A stretch of 64,000 bases of DNA from NCBI RefSeq assembly GCF_988243305.1, contig NZ_OZ547136.1; one strand, given 5' to 3'. Made by a program: the position numbers and the translations under genes. This document shows, in pieces, positions 14,942-15,920 of this stretch. The notes under the pieces are model-generated. The model had not been told where the DNA came from. It saw nothing but the letters and a program-made list of their open reading frames with translations, and searched no databases. Numbering within the stretch: position 1 is the first letter of the stretch; each line of letters opens with the position of its first letter.

Positions 14942-15920
14942 TTACTCGCGGAACAGCGCTTCGATATTCAGCCCCTGCGTTTGCAGGATTTCGCGCAAAC
15001 GGCGCAGGCCTTCAACCTGAATCTGGCGAACACGTTCACGGGTGAGGCCAATTTCACGACCTACATCTTCCAGTGTTGCCGCTTCGTACCCCAGCAAACC
15101 GAATCGACGTGCCAGTACTTCACGCTGTTTGGCGTTCAGCTCGAACAGCCATTTGACGATGCTCTGCTTCATATCGTCATCTTGCGTGGTATCTTCCGGA
15201 CCGTTCTCTTTTTCATCGGCCAGGATGTCCAGCAACGCTTTTTCGGAATCACCACCCAGCGGGGTGTCTACCGAGGTAATGCGCTCGTTAAGACGAAGCA
15301 TACGGCTGACGTCATCAACTGGCTTATCCAGTTGCTCTGCGATCTCTTCCGCACTTGGTTCGTGGTCCAGTTTATGGGACAACTCGCGTGCGGTTCGCAG
15401 GTAAACGTTCAGCTCCTTTACGATGTGAATCGGCAAACGAATAGTACGGGTTTGGTTCATAATCGCCCGTTCGATCGTCTGGCGAATCCACCAGGAAGCG
15501 GAAACCACGTTCCGGGTCAAACTTCTCTACCGCGCGGATCAGCCCCAGGTTGCCCTCTTCGATCAGGTCCAGCAACGCCAGACCACGATTGCCATAACGG
15601 CGGGCAATTTTTACCACCAGACGCAAGTTACTCTCGATCATCCGGCGGCGGGAGGCAACATCTCCACGCAGTGCGCGACGCGCAAAATAAACTTCTTCTT
15701 CGGCCGTTAACAGTGGTGAATAACCAATCTCACCAAGGTAAAGCTGAGTCGCGTCCAACACACGCTGTGTGGCTCCCTGCGATAACAGTTCCTCTTCGGC
15801 CAAATCGTTATCACTGGGTTCCTCTTCTACTAAGGCCTTTTCGTCAAAAACCTCAACTCCGTTCTCATCAAATTCCGCATCTTCATTTAAATCATGAACT
15901 TTCAGCGTATTCTGACTCAT
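14942..15920 (-). pseudogene. rpoS: RNA polymerase sigma factor RpoS with an out-of-frame internal deletion
   Basis: N-terminal ORF reads [18 protein letters not shown]...[16 protein letters not shown] then leaves frame (LVDSPDDRT...stop at 15372); the C-terminal remainder [21 protein letters not shown]...NIEALFRE is in a different frame (track ORF 14942-15520). Only one nucleotide separates the RF codons from the WW codons where intact RpoS has five residues. Confidence 0.85.

Follow-up and report, generated by a model that had tools for sequence, protein, structure and literature searches.

Does the rpoS gene in this stretch of DNA still encode a working sigma-S, or has the lesion that splits its reading frame turned it into a null allele, and if so, how recently? 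The window, that is, the whole stretch analysed here, comprises 64,000 nucleotides of the E. coli contig NZ_OZ547136.1 (NCBI RefSeq assembly GCF_988243305.1). Within it, the features of the rpoS locus, all on the minus strand, are the following.

14942–15920, minus strand: rpoS pseudogene, 979 nt as against 993 nt in intact alleles.
15495–15920, minus strand: native codons 1–142, encoding region 1.2 and the first 49 of the 71 region 2 profile positions (Pfam).
15494–15495, minus strand: deletion junction, at which 14 nt (TCAACATACGCAAC, CDS nt 427–440) are gone by comparison with L001 and L005–L008.
15372–15494, minus strand: out-of-frame tail of 40 foreign codons (LVDSPDD...RTRVVP) and a TAA stop at 15374–15372.
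14942–15493, minus strand: stranded C-terminal remnant W148–E330, with the rest of region 2, regions 3 and 4, and the native stop.
15928–15933, minus strand: native Shine–Dalgarno sequence TAGGAG, 5′ of the rpoS ATG, with 0 mismatches to L006.
14895–14928, minus strand: intrinsic-terminator-like hairpin with a T-run, directly 3′ of the rpoS stop.

The locus is identified as rpoS by its sequence, which has rpoS matches in 5,414 E. coli genomes, as well as by its position 3′ of nlpD and by a terminator-like hairpin of its own. The pcm–nlpD–rpoS synteny is kept, with nlpD (15983–17122) lying directly 5′ of rpoS and a divergent MarR-family gene on the other side. As no co-directional gene comes after rpoS, a polar effect of the lesion is not expected.

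The lesion itself was characterized by global alignment to the intact 993-nt rpoS of E. coli 7/2 (protein WP_000081550.1). All 979 retained bases (979/979) are identical to the intact allele and the two sequences differ by a single 14-nt gap, which bears out the claim of the initial annotation that an out-of-frame deletion of this size splits the gene. The gap falls exactly at plus-strand 15494/15495, where the junction had been predicted. In the coding sequence it corresponds to nt 426–439 or, equivalently, 427–440, the placement being ambiguous by 1 nt because a C is shared at both ends of the lost block. Codons 143–147 (STYAT) are lost minus one base, and the coding strand now reads TTC CGC TTC C TGG TGG ATT, a single nucleotide standing in for five codons just as had been described; written as a junction, the sequence is TTCCGCTTC followed directly by CTGGTGG. 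The open reading frame that begins at the rpoS ATG at 15920 starts MSQNTL, turns into LVDSPDD...RTRVVP and terminates at the TAA, while an open reading frame in another frame ends ...NIEALFRE at the native rpoS stop (14944–14942). Both translations agree with the earlier account of an out-of-frame run to a stop at 15372 with the rest of RpoS in a different frame. The alignment to the intact allele revealed no second lesion or compensating indel in rpoS. Since the gap is a deterministic sequence difference, no chance model is necessary to evaluate it.

Translation from the native start yields a product of 182 residues, with 142 native residues followed, after the frame shifts at F142, by 40 foreign ones; the figure of about 145 native residues given in the initial annotation was slightly too high. 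In the intact 330-aa RpoS, Pfam assigns region 1.2 to residues 56–88, region 2 to 94–163, region 3 to 174–248 and region 4 to 262–315. In the truncated product only Sigma70_r1_2 (56–88) and part of Sigma70_r2 (94–142, model positions 1–49 of 71) are found, and the product does lack regions 3 and 4 as previously proposed. The lesion had, however, been placed at the boundary of regions 2 and 3, whereas the break is in fact within region 2 (profile position 49/50 of 71), in the segment that melts the promoter, and removes S143–T147 including Y145, which closely precedes the W148/W149 dyad. Regions 1.2, 2, 3 and 4, which a functional member of the sigma-70 family carries in one continuous frame, are not in one frame here, and for this reason the rpoS of the window is a pseudogene.

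What such a product could still do can be judged from structures of the sigma-S holoenzyme, in which Y145 lies stacked beneath the flipped −11A of the promoter, and unwinding of the bubble at its upstream edge is the work of the W148/W149 dyad (PMC6917491). The truncated protein would retain region 1.2 along with the front of region 2 that binds core, and it would be without Y145, the W148/W149 melting dyad, the −10 recognition helix, region 3 (including the 3.2 linker) and region 4. By established homology, Y145 and W148/W149 of sigma-S correspond to Y430 and W433/W434 of sigma-70. Lacking the determinants of melting and −10 recognition as well as regions 3 and 4, the product would be unable to direct promoter recognition or open-complex formation or to form a productive holoenzyme, and the allele should act as a sigma-S null. 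Taken together, the sequence makes it very probable that the rpoS deletion is a real null allele.

The distribution of the deletion points to a young event. Contigs of the same lineage were retrieved by exact look-up of a frameshifted protein encoded nearby, subunit B of a decarboxylase (described below). One of them, the draft E. coli L006 (GCA_040707375.1), shows 0 mismatches to window positions 9665–18253 (8.6 kb) except for the 14 nt, and two others, L007 and L008, are three SNPs and the 14 nt apart from the window. RpoS has 330 aa in all four relatives fetched (L005–L008), which stand for about 24 contigs; the intact rpoS of these close relatives marks the deletion as the derived state. 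The junction is absent from all 5,426 complete E. coli genomes searched, among which the best full-length rpoS matches reach 98.6% (979/993). Further, the exact 36-mer across the junction was not found in metagenome_contigs or genome_contigs, which are collections of metagenomes and species-representative genomes, respectively, and an exact look-up in a collection of about 15 billion proteins returned none of the 182-, 194- and 192-aa aberrant products. A literature search for a 14-bp rpoS deletion gave nothing relevant, its sole match (PMC5100188) concerning flhD. This particular 14-nt allele thus appears to be unrecorded so far. Because near-identical relatives are intact and the junction is absent from the collections searched, the deletion is private to the sequenced clone and very recent.

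A private allele calls for a closer look at the assembly, as the absence of the allele from every other public sequence is also how an artefact would appear. According to this alternative, which is improbable although it survives better than the others, the organism has a complete rpoS from which assembly or consensus calling dropped the 14 nt. However, TCAACATACGCAAC, a block of mixed sequence, is neither a homopolymer nor a simple repeat and would be an atypical sequencing error, no repeats flank it that an assembly could collapse, the window otherwise matches a relative perfectly over the 8.6 kb mentioned above, and genuine indels are common in rpoS (PMC3240573). The remaining genes provide a further check. 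When compared with strain A10, 28 of 31 genes are intact, and all 20 of the 20 compared with FDAARGOS_1288 are; the type I-E cas operon is intact too, its open reading frames aligning to their families along essentially the whole length. Among the approximately 59 genes checked, three are disrupted, namely pphB, subunit B and rpoS, all of them between 11.4 and 15.5 kb. The two besides rpoS are:

11303–11959, plus strand: pphB (protein Ser/Thr phosphatase 2), with a GAA→TAA nonsense change at codon 42 (E42*), the stop lying at 11426–11428.
13665–14267, minus strand: UbiX-like subunit B of a non-oxidative hydroxyarylic acid decarboxylase, with a C4→C3 frameshift near 13733.

In subunit B the frame shifts at nt 532 of 594, so that about 20 residues at the C-terminal end are exchanged and the open reading frame runs on into the gene for subunit C. 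Exactly this product, of 200 aa, is encoded on 177 public contigs named E. coli, and the 157-aa open reading frame that follows the pphB nonsense codon on 162. The 5,426 complete E. coli genomes contain neither of the two lesions, and the pphB nonsense change marks a lineage that is poorly represented among complete genomes. As the aberrant products recur on so many public contigs, the two lesions are genuine lineage markers and not errors. The subunit B change is also the only other frameshift-type change in the window, and being common to that many contigs it is thus real, which again speaks against an artefact in rpoS. With the other checked genes intact, save these two older pseudogenes shared by the lineage, an artefact is unlikely, and the assembly looks accurate from its sequence.

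If the 14 nt are truly missing, the allele might nevertheless not be a clean null. The two halves could act together as a two-piece sigma, a +1 frameshift could rescue the full-length protein, or the N-terminal fragment could compete for core. The C-terminal part would then start at M159 or another internal start, and the N-terminal fragment would consist of regions 1.2–2.2 with their core- and Crl-binding surfaces. Such readings gain something from the fact that both halves of rpoS are otherwise undamaged and that the N-terminal fragment retains the conserved front of region 2. Precedents exist as well: sigma factors made of two subunits occur elsewhere (SigO–RsoA of B. subtilis), and rpoS amber-33 alleles are known to restart translation internally. 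The details of the sequence, however, make a non-null allele very unlikely. Pairing with the anti-Shine–Dalgarno sequence amounts to −6.5 kcal/mol at the native rpoS start and to only −3.5 kcal/mol or weaker at the internal starts of the C-terminal frame, which moreover sit within the translated upstream open reading frame. No credible internal start with a good Shine–Dalgarno sequence was found for the W148–E330 remnant, and given this weak pairing, rescue by restart or as a two-piece sigma is unlikely. Likewise, the TTC C TGG junction shows no evident signal for frameshifting, whether slippery or stimulatory; with neither a slippery motif nor strong internal pairing, the locus does not have the makings of a programmed frameshift or a split gene. 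Any protein rescued in spite of this would still be without S143–T147, including the Y145 of the −11A pocket, and sigma fragments with foreign tails would usually be unstable.

Finally, an exceedingly unlikely reading attributes the rpoS break to a wave of gene decay or mutagenesis confined to this neighbourhood instead of an individually selected change, which would fit the breakage of pphB, subunit B and rpoS within about 4 kb and the absence of all three lesions from the 5,426 complete genomes, but the pphB and subunit B lesions are fixed in many E. coli drafts with intact rpoS and are hence older and unrelated in time, and the mutS gene in the window is intact. Poor assembly, Shigella-like decay and local mutagenesis are all disfavoured by the pphB and subunit B lesions being shared across the lineage, by the other checked genes being intact and by the presence of only one insertion sequence. 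A real null allele remains the preferred reading of the rpoS deletion.

How the 14 nt were lost is less readily told from the DNA. The check for flanking microhomology that had been suggested in the initial annotation revealed exact microhomology of only 1 nt. The imperfect repeat CGCTTC...CGCAAC has the 14-nt spacing that is right for slippage, and no exact repeats of at least 6 nt were found around the breakpoints. Folding of both strands disclosed no hairpin beyond shuffled controls (z-scores 0.13, 0.73 and −0.53); the sole inverted repeat nearby, GTAGAGAAG/CTTCTCAAC, is imperfect, with the left breakpoint falling inside its right arm. The deletion is thus without a clear mutational signature. 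The left breakpoint is shared with the rpoS of the O111:H8 strain 8B (L003, NZ_CP077473.1, 241–1241), annotated as 'frameshifted', in which TCAACATA forms an 8-nt tandem duplication from CDS nt 427. The change in strain 8B, however, is a duplication and not a deletion, its allele background is 12 SNPs away, and it is clearly an independent event. It is very unlikely that rpoS nt 426/427 is a recurrent indel breakpoint, that the 182-residue fragment has the stability needed for binding core RNA polymerase or Crl, or both; a hot spot is not claimed because two events are too few.

As an allele that is frameshifted after codon 142 and ends in a premature stop, the window rpoS extends a very familiar class, the rpoS loss-of-function mutants, by a new allele, and comparison with alleles of this gene helps to place it. 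The GASP allele rpoS819, reportedly described by Zambrano et al. in 1993 (cited in PMC3484664), is said to carry a 46-bp duplication at its 3′ end that is advantageous under starvation, and reportedly alters only the extreme C-terminus so that partial activity is kept. The window allele, in contrast, loses everything after residue 142 and is predicted to be inactive; with the break at residue 142 of 330, an attenuated allele of the rpoS819 type is ruled out. A counterpart on the C-terminal side is the 172-aa remnant open reading frame (MNQTRT...), which has been deposited as AAN81755.1 and occurs on at least 1,000 contigs. We take AAN81755.1 to be the frameshifted rpoS of the sequenced CFT073 stock. 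CFT073 has the same 172-aa remnant, yet the causative lesion is different, and the N-terminal products of the window are not on record. Its presence on so many contigs shows how frequently public genomes carry an rpoS that is disrupted further upstream.

The initial annotation had noted that loss of rpoS function is well known, and the literature agrees for stored laboratory stocks and for some clinical isolates (PMC3484664, PMC3240573, PMC7845604, PMC7527412). In agar stabs, rpoS frameshifts appear within weeks (PMC3240573), and rpoS is a target of convergent mutation within extraintestinal infections (PMC7845604). RpoS-null strains in collections are mostly of laboratory origin, and in one carefully handled collection the RpoS-negative strains, few in number, proved to have arisen in the laboratory (PMC3484664). 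Among the nearest matches in kind are storage- and stab-selected frameshift nulls such as the delta-668A and delta-515-519 alleles of MC4100TF (Spira et al. 2011, PMC3240573), which are likewise small out-of-frame deletions with a premature stop and loss of regions 3 and 4 and are also derived mutations in a clone with wild-type relatives. They differ in position and size, the window allele affecting nt 427–440 in region 2 and lacking 14 nt as opposed to 1 or 5 nt. The SNPs, frameshifts and deletions that inactivate rpoS within hosts similarly are independent and private to single isolates among near-identical genomes; they differ from the window allele in being backed by multiple isolates per patient and by phenotypes (PMC7845604).

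The rest of the window contains several features of separate interest. A large type I-E CRISPR array at 26007–28500 contains no fewer than 36 copies of its repeat, spaced 61 nt apart, and is adjoined by cas genes at 28520–37171 on the minus strand (cas2, cas1, cas6e, cas5e, cas7e, casB, casA and cas3). The array holds a perfect 182-nt tandem duplication (26131–26312 and 26313–26494), equivalent to three repeat–spacer units, and two adjacent spacers at about 27072–27102 and 27133–27163 that are near-identical, 3 bases apart, and look as if they derive from the acquisition of two variants of the same target. The stretch between ygcE and queE holds a second CRISPR array (53374–54431); its 8 regular repeats occupy 53964–54431, and three degenerate repeat-like copies (53374–53510) are found ~500 nt upstream of them. 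Between cas3 and cysH, Rfam identifies a sok antitoxin RNA (RF01794, 104 bits) at 37251–37407 on the minus strand; the locus is of the hok/sok type, and in strain A10 it carries the annotation of a Hok/Gef family gene. An IS4 transposase gene at 59284–60630 on the plus strand, 99.6% identical to the copy in FDAARGOS_1288, sits between an operon of LemA and TPM-domain genes and eno. It belongs to the sole insertion sequence seen in the window, and because of it there are multi-copy matches to complete genomes. Sequence identity along the window is mosaic, and even the best matches among complete genomes reach only about 98–99% over 20–24 kb. The segment from rpoS through decarboxylase subunit C is essentially identical to strain 7/2; hypD (96.3%), cysH/cysI (about 96.6%), queD (95.3%) and ygcQ (96.9%) are much more divergent from the best-matching genomes. 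This pattern would fit recombination around the mutS–rpoS region.

For the strain, a null allele would be expected to abolish the general stress response, including HPII catalase, glycogen, acid and osmotic protection and the rdar morphotype. At the same time, relieved competition among sigma factors would favour sigma-70 and lead to better nutrient scavenging. Both effects are on record for rpoS nulls, in which the stress response is lost and scavenging improves through sigma competition, the so-called SPANC trade-off (PMC3484664, PMC7527412). Judging from this literature rather than from the genome itself, the allele may have been positively selected; a single private mutation could also be a neutral accident, and an origin of the deletion during storage is only a possibility. 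If the 182-residue fragment did bind core or Crl, sigma competition would be shifted beyond the effect of a plain null.

The initial annotation had called the loss of rpoS the largest physiological determinant in the window. The claim is plausible because the RpoS regulon is large (PMC7527412), although it is a matter of judgement. Since mutations of this class are well established, as are the selection behind them and the effects they have, the allele does not open a new biological question. Its importance lies with the strain itself: a sigma-S null alters stress resistance, catalase, glycogen, biofilm (rdar), acid survival and nutrient scavenging, and often signals that a clone has changed relative to its lineage during storage, culture or infection. 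As its close relatives have intact rpoS, the phenotypes of this stock may misrepresent the lineage from which it comes.
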